Part shown: positions 1 to 15,286 of the stretch, piece after piece | Layout: the number at the start of each line of letters is the position of its first letter | Position numbering within the stretch: position 1 is the stretch's first letter | Origin: a virus | Taxonomy: Duplodnaviria; Heunggongvirae; Uroviricota; Caudoviricetes | DNA length: 15,286 nucleotides | IMG/VR virus record: IMGVR_UViG_2711768167_000011 | Span: 1 to 15,286 of that record | Reading direction: 5' to 3' (one strand) | Translations under genes and position numbers: made by a program | The notes under the pieces: model-generated | Database searches by the model: none | Told to the model about the DNA's origin: nothing | The model's input: only the letters and a program-made list of their open reading frames with translations

Positions 1-141
1 CATTACGTGGGTAGGATCAATTTTCCTGATGACCCCATCGACATAGTATTTTTTCAAAGCAAGAATTGCCTTCTCGCTATGTATTCCTGATAGCTTGATC
101 AGGATATCAAAGTCTCTTTCAGATATATTCCCCTTTGTCAT
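1..141 (-). CDS. hypothetical protein, N-terminal fragment (gene continues past the left window edge)
   Basis: ATG at 141..139 with GGAG (rc of 148..151) 6 nt upstream; frame open for 47 codons to the window edge (MTKGNISERDFDILIKLSG...). Absent from the ORF track because truncated. Confidence 0.35.
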   Translation of the reverse strand, partial: MTKGNISERDFDILIKLSGIHSEKAILALKKYYVDGVIRKIDPTHVM

Positions 142-710
142 GTGTCACTCCATGAATCAAATTTCATAGTAATCAATCTTTCTTTGATCGACTTATAGAT
201 AATAAGATCAGAAATGATAAAAAAGTAACGCATATTTCTTCTCGTCATGTCTACTTATAAAATTCAAATGAACTAACCTGAACTACTTACACTGGAATAT
301 CATTATATTGGAATAATTATAAAACTGAACAAAATGGTCAATGTAATCTGGTTAATTTATAAATATTTACATTGCGTGATGATATTTAATTCCAGTGTTA
401 AGTAATGTCACATGCCTATTATTGGTTACTACTTTGTAGGTGTTTTGGTTCGGCGTTAATATCATTGGTCATAATCACCTGTGAAAGTTTATTCTTGAAA
501 TGTTATAGGTATATTACTTGCAATTAAAAATGAGAAATTTATTATTATTGTGTTTTGCAAATATAATAATTAAAAATTTATTATAAATTATGATTAGAAT
601 TGACAATATAAAAGAATAATAAAACTCAATATGAAAATAATTATCATCTGGTTTGATACTTTTGCTGTTGATTACAGGAATAAAGTGTCAGAATAATATT
701 GTTATTGGGT

Positions 711-738
711 AAAAAAAGCCTCCACTATATGTGGAGGC
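711..738 (-). terminator. rho-independent terminator-like hairpin
   Basis: Perfect 8-bp stem GCCTCCAC (718..725) / GTGGAGGC (731..738), 5-nt loop, preceded on plus strand by A7 (711..717), i.e. a U7 tail on minus-strand RNA. Confidence 0.5.
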
Positions 739-1406
739 AAACCCTTAGATAGTTCTATTGAGGCAAGTATGTTATAAATCTGCCTTATCTTTTATAGCAT
801 ATAAAGATATGTATGCTATATTTTTTTTGAAGAAATTTTTCCAGAAATTACAGTAATACAAGAAATATTAACTGGTGTGATTTTTGGATGTTTAATAAGT
901 ACAGTGTACTTATATTTTTGTAATAAAGATGAACGCGTCCTTTAGATAAACTGAAAAATATTAAGCATGTCTCATGTGGTTTTCTGAATCAAAACTCTTT
1001 TCAGTCTTTGATTTTTTGTTAAAAACAGGTTTATTGCAAGGGTGTTGTTGTGAAATGTGTTTTGGTGTCGTTGTGATTTTATGGTGATAATGTGAATTTT
1101 TATCCTTTCAAGATGGCTCCCTGGACGTTAAATACAGTGGAAATTTATATTAAGATATAAATATAACTATTGCGTTATTTAAATTATTGTCTATTACAGC
1201 TCCAGTTAATAGAGCCTGAAGTAATTTCTTAGTATTTCATCATAAGCGTTTATCTATCGTCTCTTTCTAAATTAACCGGTCGTATTACAAGGTGCTGAAT
1301 CTGATTAAGGAATGATACTTAGGGGATTATGGCTGACTTAATAATTAGATAACTGATAAATGACTATCAGGGGGATATCGTTAAGTCAGCCTTTAAAATC
1401 AAGCGA

Positions 1407-2597
1407 TTATATAGCTGGTGACTCTTTTCGAAGAGCATCAAGGTAGTCAGCGTACCATTGCATCATTTCTCGTCTTCCTTCAAGGTAACGAGCATGGTTG
1501 TATGTACCACGAATGCTGTTTTTGTCCGTATGTGCAAGTTGCATTTCAATCCATGCACTATTGAATCCTTGCTCGTGTAGAACAGTACTCATTGTATGAC
1601 GAAATCCATGCCCGGTAGCTTTTTTGTCATAGCCAATCTTCTTCAAAACCATATTGACGCTTGCATCGCTGATAGGCCTGTTAACATCATTTCTTCCGGC
1701 AAAGATGTATCTGTATCTTCCAGTCAGTTCTTTGAGGATTTGCAGAGACTGGATTGCCTGATCTGACAGAGGGACGATATGCTCCTTCCTCATTTTCATC
1801 CGGGTCGGAGGAACTTCCCATATCTTTTGGGTAAAATCGATCTCACACCATTCCCCCATACGTAATTCTACTGTTCTCAGCCCTGTGAGCATCAACAATT
1901 TTGTAGCTTCACGGGTTACAATACTGCCGGTGTAGTTTTCGAGTTTGTATAAAAACTCTGGTAGTTCAGGAGGAAGCAGGAAAGGGTAATGTGTTCGCTT
2001 ATAGCTTTTCATTGCTATAACCAGATCAGAAGCTGGATTGTATCGTGCCCGACCTGTAACAATGGCATACCGAAACACTTCACCACATCGTTGGCGAACT
2101 TTATTAGCTAGCTCGCAGGCTCCTCGGCTTTCGATACGCTGAAGAACTGCGAGAAGTTCAAGAGGTTCGATTTCACTAATGGGTCTGTTTCCAATGTAGG
2201 GAAACACATTATTTTTGAATGCTCTGTCGACATAATCAGCGTAGCTGGCAGACCAGCCTGAAACTTTTGCGTTGTACCACTCGGTGGCGATTGCGGCAAA
2301 AGTTCTTCCTTCGGAAAGGTTTTTCTCAAGATTTTCAGCTTTCTTGACTTCACCGGGATCTTTACCATCGGCATGTATTTTCTTGGCTTCATCCCGACGT
2401 TTGCGAGCTTCAGCCAATGTAATAGTTGGATAGGTGCCAAATGATAGTTTCTTTTCCTTCCCCGCATAGTGGTACTTCATTCGCCAGTACTTTGAGCCGT
2501 TAGGATTGACCTGAAGGTAGAGCCCACCACCATCGGCAATCTTATAAATTTTATCTTTGGGTTTGGCTGTTTCAACTTGTCGAGCTGTCAGTGGCAT
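1407..2597 (-). CDS. P4-type tyrosine integrase (396 aa)
   Basis: ORF-track 405-aa ORF; preferred start is ATG at 2597 (MPLTARQVETAKPKDK...) with GAGG 7 nt upstream, since the track start at 2624 is TTG. P4-Int-like N-terminus (KP.DK...DGGGLYL.V.P.GSK.WR) and C-terminal catalytic signature GHGFRHT ... RGTYNHARY. Confidence 0.9.
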   Translation of the reverse strand: MPLTARQVETAKPKDKIYKIADGGGLYLQVNPNGSKYWRMKYHYAGKEKKLSFGTYPTITLAEARKRRDEAKKIHADGKDPGEVKKAENLEKNLSEGRTFAAIATEWYNAKVSGWSASYADYVDRAFKNNVFPYIGNRPISEIEPLELLAVLQRIESRGACELANKVRQRCGEVFRYAIVTGRARYNPASDLVIAMKSYKRTHYPFLLPPELPEFLYKLENYTGSIVTREATKLLMLTGLRTVELRMGEWCEIDFTQKIWEVPPTRMKMRKEHIVPLSDQAIQSLQILKELTGRYRYIFAGRNDVNRPISDASVNMVLKKIGYDKKATGHGFRHTMSTVLHEQGFNSAWIEMQLAHTDKNSIRGTYNHARYLEGRREMMQWYADYLDALRKESPAI

Positions 2598-2940
2598 CTG
2601 GGGGCCTCGCAATAGATTGACCAAGATGTGCCCCTAAATAGGCCCCCAAATGTGACTTGATTTACGTTCCCCTGAGGAGAATTAAGGCGACTATTTGAGT
2701 AACATAAGTAAGGGTATGTGCTGATTATAAAGGCTTTTTGTGGGGTATGGTAGATTTCAGGAGAGGTGTGCATGGTGTCCCTGCAGAAATCATCTTAATT
2801 ATTATTATGTTGATTTATATGTAGTTTATTTTTGATTTTTTGTTTTTGTACCCGTTTTGTGCCCGTTTTATTCGATTCCCAATTTAAACTTCGATTCTAG
2901 AAAGGTGAGTAGGGGAGGTTGTCATTTCATGTATCATTAT

Positions 2941-2984
2941 TGTAGACACAGAATAATTACTCGCCTATCCTCACTGTAGACACA
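2941..2984 (+). promoter_or_regulatory. direct repeats upstream of the toxin-antitoxin operon (putative operator)
   Basis: Perfect 10-bp direct repeat TGTAGACACA at 2941..2950 and 2975..2984, 25-60 bp upstream of the antitoxin start; AGGAG at 2996..3000. Confidence 0.3.
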
Positions 2985-3008
2985 CAATAGATACAGGAGT
3001 TAACCCAC

Positions 3009-3257
3009 ATGCGCACACAGGTTGTATTGCAAAAATGGGGTAATAGCATTGCCCTTCGACTAACGGGAAACCTTAAAACCGTTCCGGGGTTTTCAGTGGG
3101 TGATATCGTCAACGTTGAAATTAGTGAAAAGGGGCTTTTTGTAGAAAAGCCTGCACGCCGTCGCCTGAGTGAAGCCGAATTACTCGCCGGGATAACGCCA
3201 GTTACAGCGCACGCGGACGAAATTGCCACCCCATTCAATGAGGAGGTTGATTACTGA
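3009..3257 (+). CDS. MazE/PemI/ChpS-family antitoxin (AbrB/SpoVT-type fold), 82 aa
   Basis: N-terminal KWGNSIALRL motif and C-terminal LAELLAGITP...EEV, resembling MazE as recalled; stop overlaps next start (TGATG at 3255..3259). Confidence 0.85.
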   Translation: MRTQVVLQKWGNSIALRLTGNLKTVPGFSVGDIVNVEISEKGLFVEKPARRRLSEAELLAGITPVTAHADEIATPFNEEVDY

Positions 3258-3601
3258 TGTTTGTACCTAAGCGTGGTGATATTTGCTGGCTGGATTTTGA
3301 GCCGCAGAAAGGAAAAGAGAGCGGAAAGTATCGCCCGGCACTCATACTATCCCATGAGCAATATAACCGACTCACCGGGCTTGTCATATGCTGCCCCATA
3401 AGTACGAGCATACGAAATGCTCCCACAGAAGTTCCGGTAACAAATCTGGACGCCCCCAGCGTGGTAGCAACCACACTCATTCAAACCCTTGACTGGCGTC
3501 AGCGGAAAGCGCGCTTAATCACAGAGGCAGAAGATGGGGTATTTAATGATGTGCTTGAAAGAGTCATTACCCTGATTGGTGGAGAGCATCTGCTTAAGTA
3601 A
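3257..3601 (+). CDS. MazF/PemK-family toxin (endoribonuclease family), 114 aa
   Basis: GDICWLDFEP...GKYRPALILS...LVICCPISTS pattern typical of the PemK/MazF family; translationally coupled to the upstream antitoxin. Confidence 0.85.
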   Translation: MFVPKRGDICWLDFEPQKGKESGKYRPALILSHEQYNRLTGLVICCPISTSIRNAPTEVPVTNLDAPSVVATTLIQTLDWRQRKARLITEAEDGVFNDVLERVITLIGGEHLLK

Positions 3602-3604
3602 AAG

Positions 3605-3622
3605 GAGGGCTGAGAAGCCCTC
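3605..3622. other. intergenic hairpin between convergent genes (weak terminator candidate)
   Basis: 7-bp stem GAGGGCT (3605..3611) / AGCCCTC (3616..3622), 4-nt loop; lies between the toxin stop (3601) and the stop of the convergent 423-aa gene (3645). No clean U-tract on either strand. Confidence 0.25.
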
Positions 3623-3644
3623 AACGTTACCAGAAATTTCCTTG

Positions 3645-4916
3645 CTATTCTTTCCAGTCAATCCCATCCAGTAAGCACCCTGCCTCATATTGCCCAACAA
3701 CCCAGTCAAGATTGCAGGACTCATAGAAAGCGAGGCGATTATACTGTGGCTCGTTTTTTACCAGACCACGAACGGAGCCGCGTTGCCAGTACAGGCACAG
3801 ATTGGCAAGAGGTGTGATCAGCACAGCATTGTCCGGGAAAAATGGAACGGTCACAGCCGGAAGATTCCCCAGCACGGGCTTTTTAATGATTTCCTCGTTA
3901 AGCAAAATTTCCTGATTCATCTGCGATGGATCAAGACGGTTTATCAAAGGCCATTGTTTACGGACCAGAGTATTGTGACTGCATACGGCCACAATGCCTT
4001 CCTGCCACTGTTCATCAATCATGGATTGCCAGGCATCCAGAACAAGTGCATCTATTGTATGGTGTGTACCGCGTGTATTGCTTGTCGGCGATGAAACAGA
4101 AAGACCGCTGATAACCCTTCCCGCTGCTTCGTTTCGAAACTTCTGCAACCATCCGACGCCGCAATCGTCACGGCCCGGATATGTTTCAGGATCAGATTGA
4201 TCGGCATAGTGTGTGCCGTTAAAACCAATCTGAATTAAATCCAGCCATTTCCGGCGTTCAAAAGCGGCACGGGCGCTTCCTTCAAGACCATTTGCGGACG
4301 CGTGAGCATCGACATTGTCGTAGCTCAACGCAAAATCAAAATTAACCTGCTCGCAGCGGTAGCCTCTTGAAACCAGTGAATGCGCCTGTAGTGGCGAACG
4401 GCGCTCGTGAGGTGGCGATGTACGTGCCAACGGCCCCGAAGCGTCTACCAGCACAACCTGACCTGATATATCCGTAACAGGCACGGGGGTTATTTCAGCA
4501 AGGAAATTTGCCTGCCATCCACTGGCAAGCGTTGCACTCTGGCGGGGAACGGGTTCAACTTCTGACGAATAGCGCGCAGTATCACCGGAAAAGTGCAAAT
4601 CCTTCGGATGTTTTCCGGTTATCGACTCGATAGCGCAATTGAAAACCATCTGAGACTGTTGATTTCGTTGTGATACAACATAATCAGCAGTGCAATTATA
4701 ACACTCAATGCCGTCGTTATTACCCCCACCGCTTGCAGTATGCAGGGTGTGAAGCTCAAGCTCACGCTCCAGTTTTTGATATTCATTGTCCAGCGCGCGA
4801 CGCGTCTCATCGCTTATGCTTGCTGTGTTTGCTTTCAGGCGATTCCGGGACATTAACTCCCTGAGTCGGCTCACTATATCAGCGCCGTGCAAATGTGAAA
4901 TATTCAGACCGCCCAT
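3645..4916 (-). CDS. hypothetical protein B (423 aa), downstream gene of the two-gene operon
   Basis: ATG at 4916..4914 overlaps the upstream gene stop (TAATG); corresponds to Met48 of the 470-aa ORF-track entry. Long uninterrupted frame; no Walker A, HNH or PP-loop consensus seen by eye. Confidence 0.7.
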   Translation of the reverse strand: MGGLNISHLHGADIVSRLRELMSRNRLKANTASISDETRRALDNEYQKLERELELHTLHTASGGGNNDGIECYNCTADYVVSQRNQQSQMVFNCAIESITGKHPKDLHFSGDTARYSSEVEPVPRQSATLASGWQANFLAEITPVPVTDISGQVVLVDASGPLARTSPPHERRSPLQAHSLVSRGYRCEQVNFDFALSYDNVDAHASANGLEGSARAAFERRKWLDLIQIGFNGTHYADQSDPETYPGRDDCGVGWLQKFRNEAAGRVISGLSVSSPTSNTRGTHHTIDALVLDAWQSMIDEQWQEGIVAVCSHNTLVRKQWPLINRLDPSQMNQEILLNEEIIKKPVLGNLPAVTVPFFPDNAVLITPLANLCLYWQRGSVRGLVKNEPQYNRLAFYESCNLDWVVGQYEAGCLLDGIDWKE

Positions 4917-5626
4917 TACTGCCACCCCCGGCAGAGTTCTCTGCCCTCCGCAAGGTCGCGCATTTTTTCTGGATTCTGTCGCGCCGCGCTCCATTGTACA
5001 GGTGAAGGGGCGTTCCTGATTGCGTGGCTTACCGAATCCGGCAGTTTCTCCGGGCAATAACGAAGCGGATTGGAGGCATCGCTCTCAATATCGTTAATCC
5101 GGCCGCGAATCAGCCTGACACTTTCAACAATATCTGCCACTTTCAGTGTTTCACATATTTTCTTTTCTGCGTTATACAGCGGCTGGCCAAGCAGCTCACA
5201 TAAACCACGAATCAATAACAGAGCAGGGATCAGCTCGTTAATCAGTCCGGGAAGTGCTTTTGCAAATATCTCTGCCCGCAACTTATTATCAATGCTTTCG
5301 TAAGCACAGCCAGCCTCTGCCGCGTTATAACGACACTCCAGTAACATGATGCGCGCCTCATCATGCAATACCCGCAGACGCTCAAGATTTTCTCGCGCCA
5401 CACCCGCCTGAATGGATAATTTTGCGGAGGCTTCCGTTTTTGCGCCCAGCGCAGACAGGATTGAGTTCTGCCAGTCACGATCGAGAGACTCCAGCTCCCC
5501 TTTCGTCTGTTCGATAGTCGCTTCCAGATTGGTGATTAATGATTCCTGTTCGCTGAGTTTTGCGCTGGCCGTATCAAACTGTGCTTTACATGCCTGATGC
5601 TTGGCGCTTGCCTGAGTTATATCCAT
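4916..5626 (-). CDS. hypothetical protein A (236 aa), predicted helical/coiled-coil N-terminal half
   Basis: ATG at 5626..5624 with AGGAG 6 nt upstream (rc of 5633..5637); heptad-like charged/hydrophobic N-terminus (LSEQESLITNLEATIEQTKGELESLDRDW); stop TAA at 4918..4916 overlaps the start of gene B. Confidence 0.7.
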   Translation of the reverse strand: MDITQASAKHQACKAQFDTASAKLSEQESLITNLEATIEQTKGELESLDRDWQNSILSALGAKTEASAKLSIQAGVARENLERLRVLHDEARIMLLECRYNAAEAGCAYESIDNKLRAEIFAKALPGLINELIPALLLIRGLCELLGQPLYNAEKKICETLKVADIVESVRLIRGRINDIESDASNPLRYCPEKLPDSVSHAIRNAPSPVQWSAARQNPEKMRDLAEGRELCRGWQ

Positions 5627-5676
5627 TGTTTGCTCCTGTAATACATTTTTTACTTACGCGGATTTTTTCCATATTG

Positions 5677-5735
5677 CGTAATACATTCCAGCCGATTTTG
5701 TTCTCGTAATACGCTCACAATACTGTTGTATTACG
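5677..5735. promoter_or_regulatory. divergent promoter/operator region with GTATTACG-family repeats
   Basis: CGTAATAC at 5677..5684 and 5705..5712, GTATTACG at 5728..5735; the last two form a perfect 8-bp inverted repeat with a 15-bp spacer. Sits between the start of gene A (5626, minus) and the small plus-strand gene (5791). Confidence 0.4.
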
Positions 5736-5790
5736 CTTTCTTATATCGCGGGTGTTAAATCCAGGCATAAGCAATCAGGGAGGCAACACG

Positions 5791-6024
5791 ATGAAAAAAC
5801 AAAAGAAAATGCGATACGTATTACGCTGTATTCGTATCCCGCACGAAATCGACCATAAAATAAATCAGATATGTGAGGACAGAGAGATGAACTACTCCCA
5901 GTGCGTCAGAATGTTTATCAGTCAGGGAATTAAGGCCGGGGAAACGCAGGAAGAAGACCGCAACGGGCGCAATGTAGCGGGGGATGTGTGGGCCTGGGCA
6001 AATGACCAGAACTACACGACGTAA
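5791..6024 (+). CDS. small DNA-binding-like protein (77 aa), possible ribbon-helix-helix regulator
   Basis: ATG at 5791 with GGGAGG (5777..5782) upstream; the ORF-track start at 5752 is GTG without an SD. Predicted beta-strand then helices (MRYVLRCIRIPHEIDHKINQICEDRE...), judged by eye only. Confidence 0.5.
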   Translation: MKKQKKMRYVLRCIRIPHEIDHKINQICEDREMNYSQCVRMFISQGIKAGETQEEDRNGRNVAGDVWAWANDQNYTT

Positions 6025-6074
6025 TACAGAAATAACGTAGCCGGTTACACTCGCTGGCTGTGTTATACAAATCA

Positions 6075-6257
6075 CTATGAAGTTTTCAACTTCCTGCGCT
6101 TAGTGATGCGTACAAACGACTCAAGCGTACAAAAACAAGCCCCACACTCAATATTATTGCACTGGTAATACGTTTTGTAGATGTTTTGTTCGTGTTCTTC
6201 CAACGAACGACTACGGGTTCGGGTTGAAGCGCCACAGGCCGGGCAAGGGAAAGACAT
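6075..6257 (-). CDS. Ogr/Delta-family zinc-finger transcriptional activator (60 aa)
   Basis: Four-Cys pattern CPACG...(22 aa)...CNNIECGACF with the conserved YYQCNN-type core of P2 Ogr / P4 Delta as recalled; ATG at 6257 with AGGAG 8 nt upstream. Confidence 0.7.
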   Translation of the reverse strand: MSFPCPACGASTRTRSRSLEEHEQNIYKTYYQCNNIECGACFCTLESFVRITKRRKLKTS

Positions 6258-6618
6258 ATCACGCTCCTCTTACTGGTGTGAAATTTGACCTATTATATCT
6301 TCTGCCGCCCCCTCTGGCTGTATCAAATAAACCCGCAGCAGTCGCCGCGTATTACGCACGGACGCACCGTTCCCATGCTCACTCGTCACATTCCCCGTAT
6401 CAGTTCTCTCTTACCGTAAGAACGGCTCTGGCTGGCGATAAAACTAACCCGGTCGGGCATTCCCGCAGTCTTTAGAGAAAATGTAATTTACCCCCTGAAA
6501 CGCGGGCTGTTCCCCCGTCACCTGCGCGCGAAAAACTCACCGTTTTTTGTGCACGCACGAAATCGCCCTCCGGGTGCGCCAGTACTGGGCTGGATGGGCA
6601 AAAAGTTACTCTAAAAAA

Positions 6619-6645
6619 TTGTGCAAATTTGTGCACTTTTGTGCA
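6619..6645. promoter_or_regulatory. three phased TTGTGCA direct repeats (putative operator or activator site)
   Basis: TTGTGCA at 6619, 6629 and 6639, exactly 10 bp apart; a fourth copy at 6547..6553. Confidence 0.3.
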
Positions 6646-6871
6646 GATGAACAATAGCGTGAAAAAGAGTGCTTTTGAGAGATTTTTTATGGCAACTGCG
6701 CCGCGTGTATTACGTTTTTTACCATCCCCGCCGCGCATGTACATACTTCATTTTTCTGCCAGACAACAGGGCAACTCCCCGTGACTGACAGCCCCAAAAA
6801 ATCAATGATTGATGTTGCATTTTTGTTAAAGGTTAGACCAGTTGTTTTAGGGCTCTGCCTCATAATCCGGT

Positions 6872-7185
6872 GGGGGGTGCGCAAAGCGGTTACAACGGTT
6901 ACAACACTCAAAAACACCACTTAACAGCATGATTTTAATGGATATTGTTTGTAACCGCTTTGCGGTTACACTGCGGTTACAACGGTTACAGGTTTCAAAA
7001 AGCACTTTATTATCAATCAATTAAAAACTTAACCTGTAACCGCCTGTAACCTAACAAAACGGTTACATGTAACCGCGTTGTAACCGCTTTTGTAACTCAT
7101 CGGACCAGTTATAATATATTGATATATAATACAAAAATAAGTAATTTTAAATTTGTAACCGTTGTAACCGCTTTGCGCACCCCCC
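6872..7185. repeat. iteron array (14 copies of GGTTACA/TGTAACC) bounded by 33-bp perfect inverted repeats; candidate replication origin or recombination substrate
   Basis: IR-left 6872..6904 is the exact reverse complement of IR-right 7153..7185, extendable to 36 bp with one mismatch. GGTTACA at 6888, 6897, 6964, 6975, 6984, 7061; TGTAACC at 6950, 7035, 7045, 7068, 7079, 7154, 7163. Internal palindromes GTAACCGCTTTGCGGTTAC (6951..6969) and GGTTACATGTAACC (7061..7074). Confidence 0.6.
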
Positions 7186-7380
7186 CCCAAACTTTAGCGC
7201 GACCCTTTAAAATGTTAATTAAACTCACTTACTCTGTATCTCTCTCGTTAACTTTCTGTTATTGAAATGTATCTCTCCACTGTTTGACTCTTTCTCATAA
7301 TCAGGGGAAGCAAAAAATTGATGGCGGCACTACTGCAATATGGCCACCATTGCATTGCTGTTACCGTTGGTTCTGGCCAA

Positions 7381-7412
7381 CAAAAAAGGTCAGCGGGAAA
7401 CTGACCTCTTTT
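7381..7412 (-). terminator. rho-independent terminator downstream of the primase-integrase operon
   Basis: 7-bp stem AGGTCAG (7387..7393) / CTGACCT (7401..7407), 7-nt loop, flanked by A6 (7382..7387) and TTTT (7409..7412), so bidirectional in form; about 25 nt past the integrase stop at 7437. Confidence 0.6.
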
Positions 7413-7436
7413 GCTGTGAATGCGGCGTTCTGCGGG

Positions 7437-8441
7437 TTACTCTGCTGGCTCTTTTTCTTCGGTGATCACTATGTTGGCTACCGGGTTAAATCTCATGGCA
7501 TCTGCCAGATAATCCGGTGCAAAATGTGCGTATGCCATAGTCTGCTGAATTGTCGCATGCCCAAGGATTTTTTGTAGCGCAAGAATGTTGCCACCGTTCA
7601 TCACAAAGTGACTGGCGAATGTATGCCGCAATACATGCGCAGCCTGCCCCCTCGGTAAATCGGGTTTTATTTTTTTTAATGCCCGGCAAAACTCTCTGTA
7701 CTTCACATCAAACAGTCGCCCGGTTTCTTTTGTTTTTACGGCATCGCATATTTCCTGCGACACAGGCACCGTTCTTTTTCTACCGTTTTTGGTTTCCAGA
7801 AACGTTATTCTGTTATGAACTATTTGCTCTCCATGCAATCTGCTGGCCTCACTCCAGCGGGCTCCGGTACAAAGACACAAGAGCGCAACCCTTCGTTGAT
7901 CTCCATTCAGCCCGTCAAGCAACAATGTGACCTCGTTTTTTGATAAAAAGGCCATTTCCCGCTGCTTTACATAAAGAACAGGAATACCACGAACCGGATG
8001 CTCTGCATCCCACAAACCGATCTTTTTCAGGGCTGTAAACATCCCCGATAATCTGTTCATGTATCTGTTTGCTGAGGACGGCTTTAATCCTTCCGCAATT
8101 TTCTGCGATCGCCATGCAATGATTTTTAATTTGTTGAGTTCTGCCGCAAACATGTCAGCTCCAAGCTCATTAATAATTTTGCCAAGTTGCTGTTTATCCG
8201 TGTTTGCCTTTCGCCTGTGCTGACCGTGATAGACCCACCACAATTCCAGTAAATCGCTAAGCGTTCTCCGGTCGCGATAGCCCTGTATAAACTCGCGCTT
8301 TTCGGCGTTCGCTATGATGTACCGTTCAGTTGCTGTAGCTATCGATTTTTTGTCAAATATTCTTCTGATGCGCTTCCCTTTACGTCCGCATGGCCTGATA
8401 TCGAGCAGCCACCGCCCATCATGCATCTTTCTGATCGGCAT
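7437..8441 (-). CDS. P2-type tyrosine integrase (334 aa)
   Basis: N-terminus MPIRKMHDGRWLLDIRPCGRKGKRIRRIFDKKS closely resembles recalled P2 Int (DGRYEVDIRPTGRNGKRIRRKFDKKS); catalytic HVLRHTFASH and C-terminal Tyr (QTMAYAHF). Start ATG at 8441 with AGGAGG upstream; the ORF-track start at 8477 lacks an SD. Confidence 0.85.
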   Translation of the reverse strand: MPIRKMHDGRWLLDIRPCGRKGKRIRRIFDKKSIATATERYIIANAEKREFIQGYRDRRTLSDLLELWWVYHGQHRRKANTDKQQLGKIINELGADMFAAELNKLKIIAWRSQKIAEGLKPSSANRYMNRLSGMFTALKKIGLWDAEHPVRGIPVLYVKQREMAFLSKNEVTLLLDGLNGDQRRVALLCLCTGARWSEASRLHGEQIVHNRITFLETKNGRKRTVPVSQEICDAVKTKETGRLFDVKYREFCRALKKIKPDLPRGQAAHVLRHTFASHFVMNGGNILALQKILGHATIQQTMAYAHFAPDYLADAMRFNPVANIVITEEKEPAE

Positions 8442-8443
8442 GT

Positions 8444-11113
8444 TTAACTCCCCTCCTTGTAACTGAATATCCGGCATTTCAGTACTTCCGGCTCTCTGGC
8501 CTCGGCGACCCCTCTTCCGGCGTTTGCCTGTCTGGAGACCTCACTACGAATGGTTTTGCGGCCTGTCAAAGGTCGGGAACGTCCGGCTGCGAGCAACTCA
8601 ATCATTTCGCGGTCAGTTCGGATCTCCACGCGGTGGATAGCGGCAGCCTGTGCCAGTTGCGGAATACTGATAGCAATCCCCTCGCGGCATCCCTTGCCGT
8701 AGTGGTTTACACCGTATTTTGTTATGCCGTCCAGATAGTCGAACGCCTCCCAGAACGCTATTACTTCCGGCAAGTCATCCGTTACCGCTTTAACTTGTTC
8801 CGCTGCCATTCGTTCCAGTTCCTGGCATGTGGCATTAAGCCATTCATCCGGGATATCAATAACGCATTTCAGCGCCCTGACCAGCGCAATAAGTTGCGCG
8901 TGATTTTTGGCAATACGGGGATGGAGAATATTTTCGCAACCGCAAAGGCGGGTCGTTTCAGGCTCTGAGAGCGCCAGAAACATTTCCATAATTGCCCGTT
9001 CACGGCTGACTGCCCGATGAATAAACCCTGACACCTTCTCAACGGGGTAGAGTTCCAGTCGTCTCGCCGCCAGCCGGGTATCAGACGAGTGGCGCTTTTT
9101 ATCGGTATATATGCGAATCAGTCGCTCAATAATTGCAAGTGAGGCGTTTACCCTGGCATTCTGTGCAATCACGATAGCGCCCTTAAAATCCGGGTCATAG
9201 GTGTTGTTATTGTTGGTCTTAACGCCACGAACGCCGATACCGCCGCCGTTATAGAGGCTTTTCAGGTTATCGAAGTCAAACGCACCTCTTTTTTGCGCAT
9301 TGCCTCCCCGGTCTGCTTCAATCAGAACAACAGGTAATCCGGCGACCTGTCCAAAGGTGCGCTTCCAGCCCGCCTCTGATCCTTTGGTTGGATCAACGCC
9401 TTCATAGTTGTCACGACCGCACAACCGCCAGCAAAAATCAATCAATGTTGATTTACCCGTTCCGGGCTCCCCGGTGACTTCAAGGAAGGGGAAGGATTCT
9501 TCTTTATCCCGGATTTGTTCGCTGAACAGGGAGCCCAACCAGAAAGCCAGGGTAATAATTCCTTTTTCACCAAAAGCCAGCCAGAGATCTTCCACCCAGG
9601 ACTCTGTAAACTCATCCGGTTTTTTGTAGTTAATCTGTAATGTGGGTTTTTCGCTTAATGGTTTTGCGTTTATGCCATCAATTTCAAAATAATCTTCGTC
9701 ATTGATTTCATAAGTTTTTCCCTTGTAAACAGCAATATCATTAAACAGCCATGCCCCAATCGCCTTGTTGTATCCGATAAAATCCTGACCAATAACCTCT
9801 TTTATTGCGGGAAGGTCATTTTTTATTAATGCGTCAAGGTGCGCAGTTGTTCCGGTATAAATGCCGCCTTTTGCCACATGCAACAGGCGTTTTTTAAATT
9901 CAGATGCGGATGTCAATTGTCCTGATGTAAAGGTGTTTTTCACCGTAGCACCATCCGGGAACGTAACACGGAAGTAATACCATGCTTCATCCGTGTCATT
10001 ATTTCGAATGTAATAAAGCGGCGCTGGGTTACAGTTTGCGATTTCTTTTACTGCGCCAGATTCCTTAAGTGCAATTTTGCGCGCTTCATCCTCATCAACA
10101 CTTCTCTCATTCTTGGCACGCTCTACAGCTTTCATATAGCGCTCAATGTCCAGTTTGAACCAGAAAACACGGTTATCAAAAGTAAAATGAAATTCCTTCC
10201 GCTCACGAAAGGAAAATATTATTAGCGCCTTATCTCTCGGAGATTTCGCCAGCAATAAATCACCGTAATGACGGTATCTTTTCACATCATGGCCACGCAG
10301 CTTTCCGGCGATGTGTAAATCATTCCAGTCGCGTTTATTGTTGTTTTTACCTGGCAACGCCGCTGCCGTTCTCCAGCCGTCTTCGGCGCTGCGTTCTGCA
10401 TGTTTTTTCGCGTAACGCTCACCCGCACGCCCGTTATCCAGCGCCCACACAATAACCGGACGGGGATTATCCCCGCACAGCTTCGCCAGCTCTTCCAGCG
10501 CCTTATCAGGGTAGTTCACGGCAGACATGACAGAAACGGCCGCAATGCCATTCTGGTTAAGGCTGATGGCATCAAAGATGCCCTCACAAATCCAGATTTC
10601 TTTGGCCTTGCTTAAATCTGCTCCCGGATAAGCCCACCACAACCCCTTGTAGCTGCCGGAAAAATTCGCCTTGCGCGCGAAGCGTCCCGGTCTGTCTATG
10701 ATGCGCTCCCACCACACGCCGTCAGCCAGCGTAAAACGCACAGTAGCGGCCTGTTCGCCGTTTTCCTTGTCCTGGTATCGCTCCTGAGTAAATGCGCCCT
10801 TCAGTGGCCCCACAGCAATATTGCGCGCCTCCTGAAGATAAGCTGCCACCGCTGCATATGGCTCGTCTTTCGTGCTGATATAACGATCTGACCATGATGA
10901 AAACACATCCGGGTAAAGTTCTTTGGTCAGCAGGTCTGTACCGCATTTATTTTCGCGCCCACAGTGTACGATGTACGGCCTTTCAAGGCTGGTAAACAAC
11001 TCTTTCTTTCCACATTGCGGACAAACACCATACCGGAGGTAGTTATTTTCTTCTTTGAAGTTGTAATCACGGATAAGACGGTTAATAATCTCTTTTCTGA
11101 TGTCAGATTTCAT
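8444..11113 (-). CDS. bifunctional primase-helicase (P4 alpha-like / PICI pri-rep-like), 889 aa
   Basis: N-terminal zinc-binding CPQCGKK...HCGRENKCG, Toprim-like ICEGIFDAISL, P-loop GEPGTGKST and Walker-B-like VVLIEAD. ATG at 11113 with GGAG 8 nt upstream preferred over the GTG at 11137. Confidence 0.85.
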   Translation of the reverse strand: MKSDIRKEIINRLIRDYNFKEENNYLRYGVCPQCGKKELFTSLERPYIVHCGRENKCGTDLLTKELYPDVFSSWSDRYISTKDEPYAAVAAYLQEARNIAVGPLKGAFTQERYQDKENGEQAATVRFTLADGVWWERIIDRPGRFARKANFSGSYKGLWWAYPGADLSKAKEIWICEGIFDAISLNQNGIAAVSVMSAVNYPDKALEELAKLCGDNPRPVIVWALDNGRAGERYAKKHAERSAEDGWRTAAALPGKNNNKRDWNDLHIAGKLRGHDVKRYRHYGDLLLAKSPRDKALIIFSFRERKEFHFTFDNRVFWFKLDIERYMKAVERAKNERSVDEDEARKIALKESGAVKEIANCNPAPLYYIRNNDTDEAWYYFRVTFPDGATVKNTFTSGQLTSASEFKKRLLHVAKGGIYTGTTAHLDALIKNDLPAIKEVIGQDFIGYNKAIGAWLFNDIAVYKGKTYEINDEDYFEIDGINAKPLSEKPTLQINYKKPDEFTESWVEDLWLAFGEKGIITLAFWLGSLFSEQIRDKEESFPFLEVTGEPGTGKSTLIDFCWRLCGRDNYEGVDPTKGSEAGWKRTFGQVAGLPVVLIEADRGGNAQKRGAFDFDNLKSLYNGGGIGVRGVKTNNNNTYDPDFKGAIVIAQNARVNASLAIIERLIRIYTDKKRHSSDTRLAARRLELYPVEKVSGFIHRAVSRERAIMEMFLALSEPETTRLCGCENILHPRIAKNHAQLIALVRALKCVIDIPDEWLNATCQELERMAAEQVKAVTDDLPEVIAFWEAFDYLDGITKYGVNHYGKGCREGIAISIPQLAQAAAIHRVEIRTDREMIELLAAGRSRPLTGRKTIRSEVSRQANAGRGVAEAREPEVLKCRIFSYKEGS

Positions 11114-11161
11114 ATATAAAACTCCACCCCACTGCACCTTTTGCCGTGGGGTTTTTATTAA

Positions 11162-11461
11162 TTACTCGTTACTTATTGCTTTGGCAATCCCGGCGGTTTC
11201 AGCACTATGCCATGAAAAAATTCCGCCAGAAGTATGCATTCCTGACTTAATCACTCGTAATTCCCGATAAAGAATGTTAGTTAATGATTCCATTTCATTA
11301 ATTTGCACTGGCATTCTCTCACTGGTATTAATTTCACCTGTCAATGCTGAAAGGAGCGCAATAACATTTATTACATCTTCAAGATTCTCAATGGAATCTT
11401 CCGTGAAAAAACCAGCGTATTCTTTTTTGTATATATTGCGGATATTCTGATTTTTAGACAT
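11162..11461 (-). CDS. hypothetical protein (99 aa)
   Basis: ATG at 11461 with GGGGAG 5 nt upstream; sits immediately upstream of the primase on the same strand. Confidence 0.5.
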   Translation of the reverse strand: MSKNQNIRNIYKKEYAGFFTEDSIENLEDVINVIALLSALTGEINTSERMPVQINEMESLTNILYRELRVIKSGMHTSGGIFSWHSAETAGIAKAISNE

Positions 11462-11528
11462 AAAAACTCCCCGACCCGTTAAGATCGAAATATAAATTTA
11501 ATTCAGTTATCAGTTGGTAATTCGGTAA

Positions 11529-11747
11529 TCAGTCGGAAAGCTGCGTCACCTTCAACGCTTTGAAATGTGTCATTCCCAGCTCTTCCAGCCCTTCGGCTGC
11601 GCGGCGTATGGCTTCGCCCGGTCCTGTTCCGTATACCGTTGCATGTGCATGTTTGGTTAACCCACGTTTATTAACGGCATAACCCAACACAAAGAAACGT
11701 TTTTCACCACTGCCATTATTTTTACGGGATATTGAACGGCTTTTCAT
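11529..11747 (-). CDS. hypothetical small protein (72 aa)
   Basis: ATG at 11747 overlaps the upstream stop (ATGA), indicating translational coupling. Confidence 0.45.
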   Translation of the reverse strand: MKSRSISRKNNGSGEKRFFVLGYAVNKRGLTKHAHATVYGTGPGEAIRRAAEGLEELGMTHFKALKVTQLSD

Positions 11748-11932
11748 TTCTTCACCTTTACCACTGATGCTGTGAGTTCTTCTTCTGGCAATTGATATTT
11801 CGGCGCAATTTCTTCCGTATACCTGATAGCGTCCCTTGCCGCTTTTCCTTTTGATTTATATTTACGTATCGTGTGGAAGTTTTCTTCCTCTCCTGTTACC
11901 ACATTACGCAATTTAATATGAATCTCGTACAT
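11744..11932 (-). CDS. hypothetical small protein (62 aa)
   Basis: ATG at 11932 (Met11 of the ORF-track entry, MYEIHIKL...) with GGAGG 7 nt upstream; 2 nt after the upstream stop. Confidence 0.45.
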   Translation of the reverse strand: MYEIHIKLRNVVTGEEENFHTIRKYKSKGKAARDAIRYTEEIAPKYQLPEEELTASVVKVKK

Positions 11933-11934
11933 CG

Positions 11935-12117
11935 TTACCCCTCCATGATTTTTACTGCGCATTTGTGGGTTAATCGCCCCTGTTTGTCATTGCGGGAATA
12001 TGCCATACGACAGGCATCAAGCCATACATCGTCATAAGTCGGATATTCCCGGGAATGAATCATCTGGCGAACGTCGCCGTTCTGGTAGTTAATCAGGGTG
12101 ATAAGGAGCTTAAACAT
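11935..12117 (-). CDS. hypothetical small protein (60 aa)
   Basis: ATG at 12117 (Met27 of the ORF-track entry, MFKLLITLINY...) with GGGAGG 6 nt upstream; overlaps the 3' end of the Icd-like gene by 8 nt. Confidence 0.4.
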   Translation of the reverse strand: MFKLLITLINYQNGDVRQMIHSREYPTYDDVWLDACRMAYSRNDKQGRLTHKCAVKIMEG

Positions 12118-12283
12118 GGCACGCCTCCCGGACACGGATACGGGCAACAAAGACCAGACGAGATGCCGGAAGCAGGGCGCGCGCTTCGCGCTCACTGGCA
12201 GCGGTAACGGTATGAAGGCGGATATTTTTACCGTGGCACTGCATAAAGCGCCAGATAAAATCAGGGCGTGTTGATATAGCCAT
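12110..12283 (-). CDS. Icd-like cell-division-inhibitor family small protein (57 aa)
   Basis: C-terminal 57 aa of the 175-aa ORF-track entry, starting at ATG 12283 with AAGGAG 8 nt upstream; FIWRF...SEREARALL...LVFVARI pattern resembles Icd-like proteins of P4-like elements as I recall them. Confidence 0.5.
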   Translation of the reverse strand: MAISTRPDFIWRFMQCHGKNIRLHTVTAASEREARALLPASRLVFVARIRVREACHV

Positions 12284-12699
12284 TTTGGCGGCTCCTTCTA
12301 CTGATTTACGGAGTCTCGCCAGCACGCTGCTAAACATGGTGGCGGGACGTAACAGGGTTAGCAGACTGGCGTAGAAGAAACCAGCGAGCGCAAAGGCTCC
12401 CCCATTACGCCCCGCCATAATACGGGGTAGGGTGGAATTACGGGCACAAAAAAACCGCATTACGGAAATATAGCGGCTACCCGCTTCTACTATCAGGCTG
12501 CTAAACCCGGCACCCGCTTTATGAGGTGCGGGCAAACGATACGCCATGACAAAAAAGCGAGTCAAGCAATATTGCAAATTATTTTTGGGCGATTGCGCTG
12601 AGTGATTGATTTTTAAGAGTAAAAAAGTCATAATCATTTCTGGCTATTGTTTCTTATTGTTGATTTCAGGTGCACTAAATGCACATCCTTGACTGGTTG

Positions 12700-12729
12700 G
12701 CTCGCTGGCTTTAGCGAGCTTCTTTTTTG
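12700..12729 (+). terminator. plus-strand intrinsic-terminator-like hairpin with no plus-strand CDS upstream
   Basis: 7-bp stem GCTCGCT (12700..12706) / AGCGAGC (12713..12719), 6-nt loop, followed by TTCTTTTTTG (12720..12729). Confidence 0.3.
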
Positions 12730-13190
12730 CTCTGCTGTCAGTGATCGGCCTCCTTCCCTCATATGTAGTCATGTGCTCATTCCAGTCAGGTGGATAATGC
12801 TGTATTACCGGACATCCGGTTATGATGTTTAAAGCGTTTGTTTGTTTATGCCACGTGGAGAATATACCCCCACCGCCATTACTTGTATTTATCATAACAG
12901 TTCACCCAATTCGGTTAATGTAACCGGAATAACTCAATTTCATACACTGTAAATAAATGCTGATTTTAAACTTAGCTCCTTGGAATATATTTCTTACGTG
13001 TGACGCACAGGTGAAAATATCCCTCTGATAGTCCATTTTCTTTTATTTTGTCACATCTGTTTACTCCGGTTCCCTTAACAAGGGTAGAGCATCTTTTAAA
13101 CCATGAATGCATCTTCGGTTAAGTGATGTTTCTTATTGTATGAAATATTTAGGCGCATATCGCGCCATGCTGACTATAAAATGAAAATAA

Positions 13191-13412
13191 TTAAGCCTGA
13201 AAACGTTGTTGTTTTCTTTCTTCTATCCAGTCGATAATTTCCTCTTCAACCCATGCAACCGCGCGAGGGCCTATTTTTATTGGTTTGGGGAATATATCAG
13301 ATTTTATATCTTCGTAAATTCGAGCTCTTGATCTCCCTGTGATTTCAATGACTCTGGGGAGTCTTATTAATTTTTGAATCCGCCTTTCGCTGGTCTGTGA
13401 GTATGCTGACAT
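13191..13412 (-). CDS. alpA: AlpA-family (excisionase-like) phage transcriptional regulator (73 aa)
   Basis: LIRLPRVIEITGRSRARIYEDIK...FPKPIKIGPRAVAWVEEEI matches the AlpA/Xis-like helix-turn-helix pattern; ATG at 13412 with AGGAGG 5 nt upstream. Confidence 0.85.
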   Translation of the reverse strand: MSAYSQTSERRIQKLIRLPRVIEITGRSRARIYEDIKSDIFPKPIKIGPRAVAWVEEEIIDWIEERKQQRFQA

Positions 13413-13942
13413 ATTGGCCTCCTGTATATGCTGACATTTTACGTTAGCTCACAGCGGGAGCATGTAAGATCTCGCGGTCGTCTGCGGGACGAGAAAAATC
13501 ATAAACAACGAAAAGCGGATTTGTAAATCAGGTCGATTTTCAGGCGGGGTTGACAGGGACAGTGAGATTTGTTCCATGTGTGCAATATACATTTTAGGAC
13601 CACTTTAAGCCACTTTAAACCGCCAGAAAGCGACAAAGAATAACAAGTTAGTGCCAGAAAGGTTTGCTGACTTACCCTTTTAGGTACCAGAAAAAGCCCT
13701 TTCAGGTCGGTGTAATGCTTGTGAACGCTGAAATAGTGGTTTCTGAAAACAAAAAAAGAATTGAAAATGCGATACATATCACAAAATAATATCGATAAAA
13801 TAGTTTGATTTTTTTTGTTTTTATTAAAAGCACTGGTTAATTGTAAAAAATTAATTATAAATCAAATGGATATATCTGTTTTTTTAGGGTAAAAATCACT
13901 AGGTGCTTTTAGCAGTATCTTATTCTATTGATTTTAAAAGAT

Positions 13943-13976
13943 AAAAAAATCGGCGTGTCCACATATTGTCCACGCC
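13943..13976 (-). terminator. rho-independent terminator candidate downstream of the right-hand integrase
   Basis: Stem GGCGTG (13952..13957) / CACGCC (13971..13976), preceded on plus strand by A7 (13943..13949), i.e. a U7 tail on the minus strand; about 50 nt past the integrase stop at 14024. Confidence 0.45.
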
Positions 13977-14023
13977 TTGAGTTTAATTCAGCCGCTTGGG
14001 ATAGTTTAGTTTGTTGAGTTGAT

Positions 14024-15286
14024 TCAGTCTGTTTCGTTAGTCCATTTAAAATCATAGGGGGAAATATATGCCGTCTTGCAGGTGTCGAGATAATCAGCCC
14101 ACCATTGCAACATTCGGCGGCGTTCCTGCATATGTTCAGCTCTGTGAACGTATGCAGCCCGGACACTGCCTCTTTCCCTGTGACTCATCTGAAGCTCAAC
14201 GGCTTCTCTTGTCCACCTGCCTGACTCTGTCAGCGCCGAACAGGCCATGGTCCTGAATCCGTGACCACAAATATCTTTTTTTGTGTCGTATCCCATGTGG
14301 CGTAATGCCTTGTTAATGGTGTTTTCGCTCATTGGTTTTATCTGGTAATGGTCGCTGGGGAAAATAAACACTTCATCACCGGATATATTTCTTATATCGT
14401 CAAGAAGCTGCATGGCCTGAGTGGGTAAAGGGATGGCGTGAGGGGTTCCCATTTTCGTTCCACGATATGAATATTTTACGCCTTCTATTTTTTCGCGTTC
14501 TGCTGGTATTACCCACATTGATTTATCAAAGTCAATTTCATTCCAACGAGCAAAACGCAATTCACTTGAGCGAATAAAAATTAATAAATTTAATTTTAGT
14601 GCAAATTGCGTTAATAACCGTCCATTCATCTTATGGTGGTAATCATTTATTTTGCCAAGTAATTCAGGTAATCGCTCAAGGGGAAGAGCGGGGCGATGTT
14701 TGGTTTTATTAGTTTCGATTGCACCGTTCAGTTCCTGCGCTGGATTGTATTTAATCATTCCATTCTGTACAGCGTAGCGCATAATGGCGTTCATTCGCTG
14801 CTTGTTACGTGATGCTGTCTCAAGCACTCCTTTGTCTTCCATTTTGCGTAAAGGAATCAGTAGATCCATGGTTGTGATCTCGTTAATTGGCCTTTTACCA
14901 AGAATGGGGAAGATGTGGTTTTCCAGGTCTTTTAAGACTTTTTGCGCGTGTAATTCGCTCCACCCCTTTTTCCGGCTGTGCCATTCTCTGGCAACGTCTT
15001 CAAAAAGCACTATTTGAGGTTTTGGTGTGTGCAGTGGGTCAATGCCTTTAGCCAGGCTCGCCAGATATTCATCACGAGCGTTCCTTGCCTGTGCAAGTGT
15101 TACGGCAGGATAAATGCCTAAAGCTCGGGTCGTTTCTTTACCGTTGATAACCTTGCGAAAGCGCCAGTATTTTGAGCCGTTGGGGTGAACATAGAGATAC
15201 AGGCCTTTCCCGTCACGAAGTTTTTTAATTTTATTGTTGTCCTTATCTGGTTTGGCGTTACGTACAGCTATATCAGTCAGTTTCAT
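14024..15286 (-). CDS. P4-type tyrosine integrase (420 aa)
   Basis: N-terminus MKLTDIAVRNAKPDKD...GKGLYLYVHPNGSKYWRF typical of P4-family integrases; catalytic GHGFRTMA and C-terminal RAAYVHRAEH; the start codon is the last 3 nt of the window, so RBS and upstream att lie outside. Confidence 0.9.
   Translation of the reverse strand: MKLTDIAVRNAKPDKDNNKIKKLRDGKGLYLYVHPNGSKYWRFRKVINGKETTRALGIYPAVTLAQARNARDEYLASLAKGIDPLHTPKPQIVLFEDVAREWHSRKKGWSELHAQKVLKDLENHIFPILGKRPINEITTMDLLIPLRKMEDKGVLETASRNKQRMNAIMRYAVQNGMIKYNPAQELNGAIETNKTKHRPALPLERLPELLGKINDYHHKMNGRLLTQFALKLNLLIFIRSSELRFARWNEIDFDKSMWVIPAEREKIEGVKYSYRGTKMGTPHAIPLPTQAMQLLDDIRNISGDEVFIFPSDHYQIKPMSENTINKALRHMGYDTKKDICGHGFRTMACSALTESGRWTREAVELQMSHRERGSVRAAYVHRAEHMQERRRMLQWWADYLDTCKTAYISPYDFKWTNETD

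Follow-up and report, generated by a model that had tools for sequence, protein, structure and literature searches.

An Ogr/Delta-type regulator gene in a probable P88-dependent satellite island of Escherichia coli

Does a gene for an Ogr/Delta-type regulator on a chromosomal island mark that island as a phage satellite and, if so, which phage would serve as its helper? This question is raised by a 15,286-nucleotide stretch of DNA (IMG/VR record IMGVR_UViG_2711768167_000011, positions 1 to 15,286; hereafter, the window), in which an interpretation made from the letters alone (the sequence-only reading) had pointed to a short gene of this type. Ogr/Delta proteins are late-gene activators (PMC8628076). 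We conclude, with moderate confidence, that the gene (hereafter, ogr) encodes a single-domain Ogr/Delta activator and is a core component of a helper-dependent island of about 12.7 kb. The ogr gene and the genes that accompany it are as follows.

6075 to 6257, minus strand: ogr/Delta-type gene, assigned by PF04606, the invariant residues, and its PGAP name
5791 to 6024, plus strand: small ribbon-helix-helix (RHH)-like gene (77 aa) that converges on ogr and diverges from the Sid-like operon, with a weak CopG_antitoxin match (E 0.07)
4916 to 5626, minus strand: gene for a remote homologue (236 aa) of Sid, the protein that determines capsid size in P4
3645 to 4916, minus strand: gene for a P2-family major capsid protein homologue (423 aa; Pfam Phage_cap_P2, E 1.5e-73)

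The regulator gene and its conserved cassette

The ogr open reading frame (ORF) occupies 6257 to 6075 of the minus strand, with an ATG start, 60 codons, and a stop codon, and is preceded by a GAGGAG ribosome-binding site 7 nt 5′ of the start codon; its translation is MSFPCPACGASTRTRSRSLEEHEQNIYKTYYQCNNIECGACFCTLESFVRITKRRKLKTS. In the profile search that the sequence-only reading had proposed, Pfam PF04606 (Ogr_Delta) matched residues 5 to 51 of the protein over 46 of the 47 profile positions with a score of 40.1 bits (E 3.4e-10), against a curated gathering cut-off of 26.3 bits, and PHROG 603, a "transcriptional regulator" family, also matched (E 9e-10). The cysteines are laid out as CxxC-N24-CxxxxC, with a conserved arginine after the first pair and a conserved phenylalanine after the second, as is characteristic of the family. 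In an alignment of P2 Ogr, P88 Ogr, both halves of P4 Delta, and seven island homologues, Cys-5, Cys-8, Arg-15, Cys-33, Cys-38, and Phe-42 were invariant, and the ORF and its motifs were preserved in homologues down to 37% identity. The profile score and the presence of all four cysteines confirm that the predicted protein is a genuine Ogr/Delta-family zinc-finger regulator, far beyond what chance would give, and the original assignment thus stands. The gene itself is ordinary and its annotation is not new: the RefSeq/PGAP entry for the co-located gene of an E. coli chromosome (L001), WP_071791179.1, is already named "ogr/Delta-like zinc finger family protein".

The neighboring operon had been regarded as unknown, and no Sid- or Psu-like gene had been seen near ogr. 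It took family profiles and structure to bring out the homology of the first operon gene to sid. When the 236-aa protein was compared with Sid, Psu, and gpO by BLASTP, no match was obtained, nor did tblastn against 50,697 phage records give one, and a word-indexed protein search with the Ogr and Sid-like proteins returned close E. coli relatives only. An exhaustive phmmer search, in turn, placed the protein in a family of ~240-aa proteins with 24–40% identity. The PHROG of P4 Sid was matched by 11 of the 14 aligned members of this family (best E 1.9e-6), and a profile–profile comparison of the Sid-like family with a Sid family alignment gave a probability of 82% (E 1e-5), with the two being colinear over 98 columns. 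From these profile matches, we conclude that the 236-aa protein is a remote homologue of Sid. In a Foldseek search against the PDB, Sid ranked fifth and Psu sixth, with an E of 0.16 that is not significant alone; a BFVD search was uninformative, and a single-sequence AlphaFold2 model (pLDDT 50) was unusable. The C-terminal half of the protein, which has a conserved PSPxQ...LAxGxExCRG motif, differs from Sid. A relationship of the family to Psu was considered and rejected (hhalign probability, 0.3%), and no Psu match was found among the window ORFs scanned by BLASTP, Pfam, and PHROG. The earlier remark on nearby genes was therefore right for Psu and wrong for Sid and, since the two genes encode a Sid homologue and a P2-family capsid protein, the operon can no longer be called unknown.

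The start of the capsid gene overlaps the stop codon of the Sid-like gene by one base. Its product shares 34–36% identity with P2 gpN from residue 86 onwards (36–37% with P2 and P88 gpN in another comparison), is 31–39% identical to phage capsid proteins among the matches listed, and is <60% identical to all 499 matching records. At its N terminus, a helical extension of ~85 residues (residues 1 to 85) is followed by a Gly-rich linker; this extension is common to the proteins of the window and of the related loci L010, L013, and L014, and may represent a scaffolding domain fused to the capsid protein, comparable to the HK97 delta domain. The ratio of nonsynonymous to synonymous substitution rates (dN/dS) of the capsid gene was 0.09, indicating strong purifying selection. 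The protein differs from every phage gpN by as much as the P2 and P88 versions differ from each other, so the gene was not captured recently. The extension also bears a weak resemblance to the C-terminal tail of P2-type gpO scaffolds (ASGGGNN...C versus ATGGGGD...C, with a shared ...GGGG...C motif); homology between the two was not established (E 0.26 in a two-sequence search).

Related loci were gathered from the contexts of distant Sid-like proteins and by scanning one genome per species with the island capsid alignment. HMM (hidden Markov model) searches detected a cassette of Ogr, RHH (in reverse orientation), Sid-like, and capsid genes in all eight enterobacterial loci with enough flanking sequence, and the same order was seen in L010, L013, and L014; in the metagenomic loci L015 and L016, the order was Sid-like, capsid, Ogr. 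The hosts of the loci included Escherichia, Klebsiella spallanzanii, K. indica, Enterobacter hormaechei, Izhakiella, Kluyvera, and Apirhabdus. A locus of Candidatus Erwinia dacicola was truncated to the Sid-like and capsid genes, and one locus came from a metagenome-assembled genome labelled Bacillota. In all, the cassette spans at least six genera at 30–50% protein identity, and ogr is thus a core gene of this island family and not a stray one. The RHH motif (xRxxRIPHxxD) and the position and orientation of its gene were likewise kept in L010, L013, L016, and the eight flanked enterobacterial loci, and the 77-aa product is a candidate repressor or operator-binding protein. In L011, two tandem Ogr_Delta genes (1291–1705; 72 and 64 aa) directly precede the Sid-like gene. 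It is possible that they represent the unfused counterpart of the two-domain P4 Delta.

The packaging element, the likely helper, and the island

Just upstream of ogr, the window contains a stretch that bears on the identity of the helper.

6486 to 6645, no strand assigned: cos-type packaging element (160 bp), 81.5% identical over 162 bp to P88 10903–11062

The matching P88 segment is a non-coding stretch just upstream of the P88 portal gene; in the window, the element lies 230 bp upstream of ogr. All 18 phage records that matched the element were P88-like. The linear record NC_049391 (P88_4B11) is organized like P2, starting on the left with the portal gene; both ends of the record fall within the element at about window position 6600/6601, and we therefore read 6486–6645 as a P88-type cos region. 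P88-type cos was found upstream of ogr in 11 of the 11 related loci with sequence there, and the element was present in 1164 of 5426 complete E. coli genomes. In strain JJ1887, it lies ~900 bp past the portal gene of a P88-like prophage, with one small ORF between them. A 90-aa ORF annotated by PGAP at 6472–6744 is probably spurious, because it overlaps the cos-like element and shows a dN/dS of 1.28 in comparison with a 97% relative. A P2/P4-type cos was also considered for the window and its relatives and was rejected, as only chance matches of ≤11 nt were obtained.

The Ogr proteins themselves point in the same direction as this element. For the window Ogr, identity amounts to 50% with P88 Ogr, 40% with P2 Ogr, and 31–38% with P4 Delta; in the related island L010, Ogr reaches 78% identity with its P88 counterpart. 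The nearest non-island relative of the window Ogr (P0014) follows gpD in a P88-like prophage. P88-type portal/terminase DNA occurs in 1125 of the 5426 complete E. coli genomes, about a fifth, and one sequence, NZ_CP080223.1, carries both the island and a P88-like prophage. Together, these sequence comparisons indicate that the likely helper is a P88-like phage (Xuanwuvirus, P2-family) rather than P2 itself, as no P2/P4 cos was found in the window. The earlier inference of a helper-dependent satellite thus gains support from the P88-type cos, the P88-type relatives of Ogr, the size of the island, and its mobility between two sites; the P2 context in which it had been placed gives way to a P88-like one.

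The remaining features of the island, from its integrase end, are as follows.

14024 to 15286, minus strand: P4-type integrase (53% identity to P4 Int over 417 aa), the ORF of which reaches the last base of the window
13191 to 13412, minus strand: AlpA/Vis-type regulator (Pfam Phage_AlpA, E 5.5e-17; 34% identity to P4 orf88)
12335 to 12529, minus strand: isrK and C4 antisense RNA immunity module (Rfam RF01695, 73.3 bits; RF01394, 50.6 bits)
8444 to 11113, minus strand: primase/replicase with a Toprim domain (PHROG 1139, E 2e-297)
7437 to 8441, minus strand: second, P2-type integrase (Pfam Int_N and Phage_integrase; 48% identity to P2 Int)
6888 to 7169, no strand assigned: likely replication origin, an AT-rich core surrounded by 13 GGTTACA iterons that occur in both orientations
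3009 to 3601, plus strand: MazE/MazF toxin–antitoxin pair, accessory cargo (Pfam PemK_toxin, E 1e-24; PGAP names)

Window positions 2772–15286 are 99.3–99.4% identical to the E. coli chromosome L001, in which a tRNA-Arg gene lies just past the P4-type integrase, outside the window. Identity with this reference strain ends at 2772, and positions 1–2771 are different. Since the match stops there, we estimate the island at ~12.7 kb, about one third of the 35.8-kb P88 genome. The island core was found at two chromosomal sites, argW and gcd–hpt, with different integrases. In STEC379 and others, a 97% identical core lies between gcd and hpt behind a different integrase, which argues that the element is mobile; the integration module is swapped between the argW and gcd–hpt copies. 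In the gcd–hpt loci L019, L020, L021, and L013, the shared core extends from MazEF through an Icd-like gene and is accompanied by a 399-aa integrase and a different AlpA. No att (attachment) repeats of ≥12 nt were found at the island ends. Another P4-type integrase (44% identical to P4 Int) is encoded at 1407–2624, below position 2772. The content of positions 1–2771 suggests that a second island begins there in tandem; neither a tRNA nor an att repeat of ≥12 nt was found for this segment.

The Toprim primase is under strong purifying selection and does not belong to the P4 alpha family, to which it shows short local matches only (E 0.001–0.03); small ORFs occupy the stretch between the isrK/C4 RNAs and the primase gene. 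GGTTACA occurs 17 times in the window as compared with 1.6 expected copies. The cluster at 6888–7169 is bracketed by inverted G-rich arms, the same iterons are found in L013, and the position of the cluster downstream of the primase matches that of the origins of Gram-negative phage-inducible chromosomal islands (GN-PICIs; PMC10111431); we therefore consider that it is probably the replication origin of the island. The P2-type integrase gene (dN/dS 0.09) is 74% identical to P88 int over 161 bp of DNA; it is also present in L013, L014, and L020, and not in L010. P88 (L005) has an isrK/C4 RNA pair too, at 5028–5225; such pairs belong to RNA immunity of the P1/P7/P4 type, and cross-talk between the immunity of satellite and helper is conceivable. 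The isrK/C4 modules of the island and P88 share a 27-nt stretch of 93% identity. At the distal position held by MazEF, relatives carry HigBA or other cargo, much as P4-like satellites have a hotspot of variable content. None of the window ORFs that were scanned showed a domain of a portal protein, protease, or terminase; the capsid homologue and the Sid-like protein were the only morphogenesis proteins found. L010 encodes, at 4646–4927, a 93-aa protein that resembles P4 epsilon and the "derepression protein" of P88 and has the same FSY..DD motif. This L010 protein has no detectable counterpart at the same position in the window, where a 99-aa ORF (11162–11461) lies.

Regulatory signals and the role of the regulator

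What, then, would ogr control? Two regulatory stretches flank the ogr–RHH pair.

6292 to 6355, minus strand: putative ogr promoter, read from the sequence, with TATAAT at 6297–6292 and no −35 hexamer
5627 to 5790, no strand assigned: divergent regulatory region between the RHH and Sid-like genes, with four YGTAWTACR sites, a TGT-N15-ACA dyad, and AGAACAAAA

In the divergent region, the center of the TGT-N15-ACA dyad (5719–5699) precedes the Sid-like ATG by about 83 bp, and AGAACAAAA (5704–5696) differs at one position from ACAACAAAA, the late-promoter box of P88. P88 has four exact copies of ACAACAAAA, two of which are in its two divergent late-promoter regions. In L010, L014, and the L024–L027/L031 (Klebsiella/Enterobacter) group, the Sid-like start is preceded at 86–107 bp by an exact ACAACAAAA, and in the relatives L010, L015, and L016, an exact TGT-N12-ACA is centered 82–92 bp ahead of the Sid-like ATG.

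A second type of signal, YGTAWTACR, is nine-fold enriched in the window (14 copies versus 1.5 expected), with nine of the 14 copies within 5638–6713. Those in the RHH/Sid-like intergenic region lie at 5638, 5678, 5706, and 5728, one of them inside the dyad. Upstream of ogr, an operator-type site, CGTAATACG, is found at 6349–6355, about 67 bp before the inferred ogr start, with an equivalent site upstream of ogr in L010. A GTAATAC copy inside ogr is accounted for by Tyr-Tyr codons. GTAATAC was also considered as an Ogr site shared with helpers and was rejected, because it is absent from the late-promoter regions of P88, P2, and P4. The divergent RHH protein is the most economical candidate for the binder of YGTAWTACR, and Ogr itself is also a candidate.

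This distribution bears on whether Ogr might control island genes only, for example via YGTAWTACR read as TGT-N3-ACA, with the helper late genes being driven by the helper's own Ogr. Such a role would account for the concentration of the sites near ogr, the RHH gene, and the promoter of the Sid-like gene, for their recurrence at corresponding positions in L010 and in the Klebsiella/Enterobacter group, for their TGT/ACA half-sites, which are those of Ogr-type sites, and for their lack in the helper late-promoter regions. However, short tandem or inverted operators are more conventionally bound by a protein such as the adjacent divergent RHH protein, and the island Ogr sequences track P88 Ogr, at up to 78% identity, which suggests shared targets. 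We thus consider a purely island-internal role unlikely, although less so than the other alternatives.

We favor, instead, a model in which ogr acts on both genomes. In a cell in which a P88-like phage is growing, the island Ogr homologue would, by analogy, play the role that Delta plays in P4, acting at sigma-70 promoters that lack a −35 element and have a TGT...ACA-type upstream site. One set of such promoters would be those of the helper late operons, the source of portal, terminase, tails, and lysis; the other would be that of the island operon, which encodes the Sid-like external scaffold and the diverged major capsid protein of P2 type. The small RHH protein encoded divergently would probably act on the YGTAWTACR operators that flank or overlap the Sid-like promoter and lie upstream of ogr, and its binding would keep the module silent while the island is integrated. 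Island DNA would then be cut and packaged at the P88-type cos, presumably into small (P4-like) capsids. The comparisons establish the family of the protein, the conservation of the cassette, the homologies of cos, Sid, and the capsid protein, and the mobility of the island, whereas we infer DNA binding, activation, the responding promoters, the operator binder, and the capsid size.

Several points weigh against this model. The island Ogr has 60 residues as compared with 72 in P2 Ogr and 71–85 in P88 Ogr, and a determinant of activation could be missing from so short a protein. The dN/dS of ogr among close relatives (0.55–0.68) is uninformative, as it derives from just 6–7 substitutions. The match of AGAACAAAA is weak alone, since matches with ≤1 mismatch occur 24 times in 15 kb, and no window intergenic region has an exact TGT-N12-ACA, the sole match being inside an integrase gene and below chance. 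Both the TGT-N12-ACA consensus and the −55 position come from the P2/P4 literature. The Sid-like promoters of the relatives resemble the P88 late promoter over 14–24 nt only (E 0.07–1.1). An epsilon-type derepressor was not detected among the window ORFs in comparisons with P4 epsilon, P88 gp14, and the epsilon-like protein of L010. Small capsids and helper-dependent induction, replication, and packaging of the island are predictions, with the helper-type cos as indirect evidence for the dependence on a helper.

The shortness of the protein, which lacks the C-terminal tail of the phage Ogr proteins, also raises the possibility of interference with the helper. A truncated Ogr might occupy late-promoter sites or RNA polymerase alpha in competition with the helper Ogr, so that helper late transcription is delayed or blocked as a brake in the service of defence or parasitism; in a variant of this idea, the island Ogr would fire the helper late genes prematurely. 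Satellites are known to disturb helper late gene expression, as in the example of a Staphylococcus aureus pathogenicity island (SaPI; PMC6893505), and MazEF represents other defence-like cargo of the island. Nevertheless, the conserved core of the protein (residues 1–50) is intact, and ogr is kept beside the Sid-like/capsid operon, the promoters of which have activator-type sites in the relatives. In addition, blocking late transcription would bring nothing to an island that needs the portal, terminase, and tails of its helper. These considerations make interference improbable.

Finally, the co-occurrence of several P2-family pieces (the second integrase, cos, Ogr, and the capsid gene) and a dN/dS of ogr not clearly below 1 might be taken to mean that these parts are left over from a degraded P88-like prophage fused to a PICI-like island, with ogr having no current role (ogrK of E. 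coli K-12 is the comparison for such a gene), but we regard this as very improbable, given that the gene order is unlike the D-ogr-att-int order of P2 and P88, that the cassette has been retained across the genera named above in spite of its divergence, that the capsid, second integrase, and primase genes are under strong purifying selection, that the capsid protein is no recent capture, and that the island occurs at two sites with intact ORFs.

Comparison with known satellites

To our knowledge, P4 is the only worked-out model for the hijacking of P2-family phages. The island family has lost Psu and gained a capsid protein of its own while keeping Delta and a highly diverged Sid, thereby offering a natural experiment on the co-evolution of scaffold and capsid and on the passage of satellites from capsid stealing to capsid making. 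Current satellite finders probably miss this family because they demand Psu, epsilon, and alpha. Since P88-type helpers occur in about a fifth of complete E. coli genomes, these islands could be a frequent route for toxin–antitoxin and defence cargo. The value of ogr lies in the context that it reveals, where experiments can be aimed precisely at cos, the operators, and the promoter boxes.

At the level of single proteins, P4 Delta, the phiR73-type Delta, P2 Ogr, and P88 Ogr belong to the same PF04606 zinc-finger family as the island Ogr, with Arg-15 and Phe-42 invariant. The island Ogr is a single 60-aa domain, whereas P4 Delta is a two-domain protein of 166 aa; the island ogr stands alone, downstream of cos and convergent with the RHH gene, whereas P4 has a sid–delta–psu operon. 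The island and P4 have in common the type of integrase, an AlpA/Vis regulator, a Sid-family protein, and a cos matching that of the helper. P4-like satellites in the sense of Moura de Sousa and Rocha reportedly carry an integrase, Psu, Delta, Sid, AlpA, epsilon, and alpha. The island has the integrase, Delta (as a single domain), Sid, and AlpA from this set, and lacks Psu, epsilon (Ash), and alpha (three of the seven). It resembles P4-like satellites in size (~12.7 kb versus 11.6 kb), in having a helper-type cos, and in its C4-family immunity RNA. It differs from them in its additional P2-family capsid gene, RHH gene, and P2-type second integrase, in its operon layout, and in the type of cos, which is that of P88 in the island and of P2/P4 in the P4 satellite.

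GN-PICIs are 10–20 kb long with the order integrase, alpA, primase, origin, and late/accessory genes, and a major capsid gene is present in 21 of 29 GN-PICI reference elements (PMC10111431). The island has this gene order and falls within this size range. Described GN-PICIs (EcCICFT073 type) and capsid-forming PICIs, however, have lambda/HK97-type capsid genes, whereas that of the island is of the P2 family, and we found no mention of Ogr in the PICI literature searched. Capsid-forming PICIs also encode a full set of capsid, protease, portal, connectors, and small terminase; the island has the capsid protein and the Sid-like scaffold only, and so lacks the full capsid and packaging set. A satellite homologue of a helper major capsid protein is known in Ccm of SaPIbov5, which redirects capsid size and shares 23% identity with its helper counterpart (PMC6893505). 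The island similarly carries a diverged copy of a helper-family capsid protein, yet it involves another phage family and host, its capsid gene is translationally coupled to that of a Sid-like scaffold, and the protein has the N-terminal helical extension. In the literature covered, which is incomplete, no description was found of an Ogr/Sid-like/P2-capsid cassette in P4-like or PICI elements, or of a P88-type satellite.

The island thus appears to be a satellite type undescribed so far, a variant of the P4/PICI theme. As a tentative extension, which we regard as possible rather than probable, the loci might form a multi-genus family of P88 satellites that build a small capsid from their own P2-type capsid protein, with its fused scaffold-like N-terminal domain, shaped by the Sid homologue, and steal only the portal, terminase, and tails. 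Their Ogr/RHH pair would serve as a late switch, with Ogr cross-activating the helper late genes, and the family would be intermediate between P4 and the capsid-forming PICIs. As judged from its gene content, the island combines a GN-PICI-like backbone of P4-type integrase, AlpA, primase, and iteron origin with a P4-like morphogenesis module.

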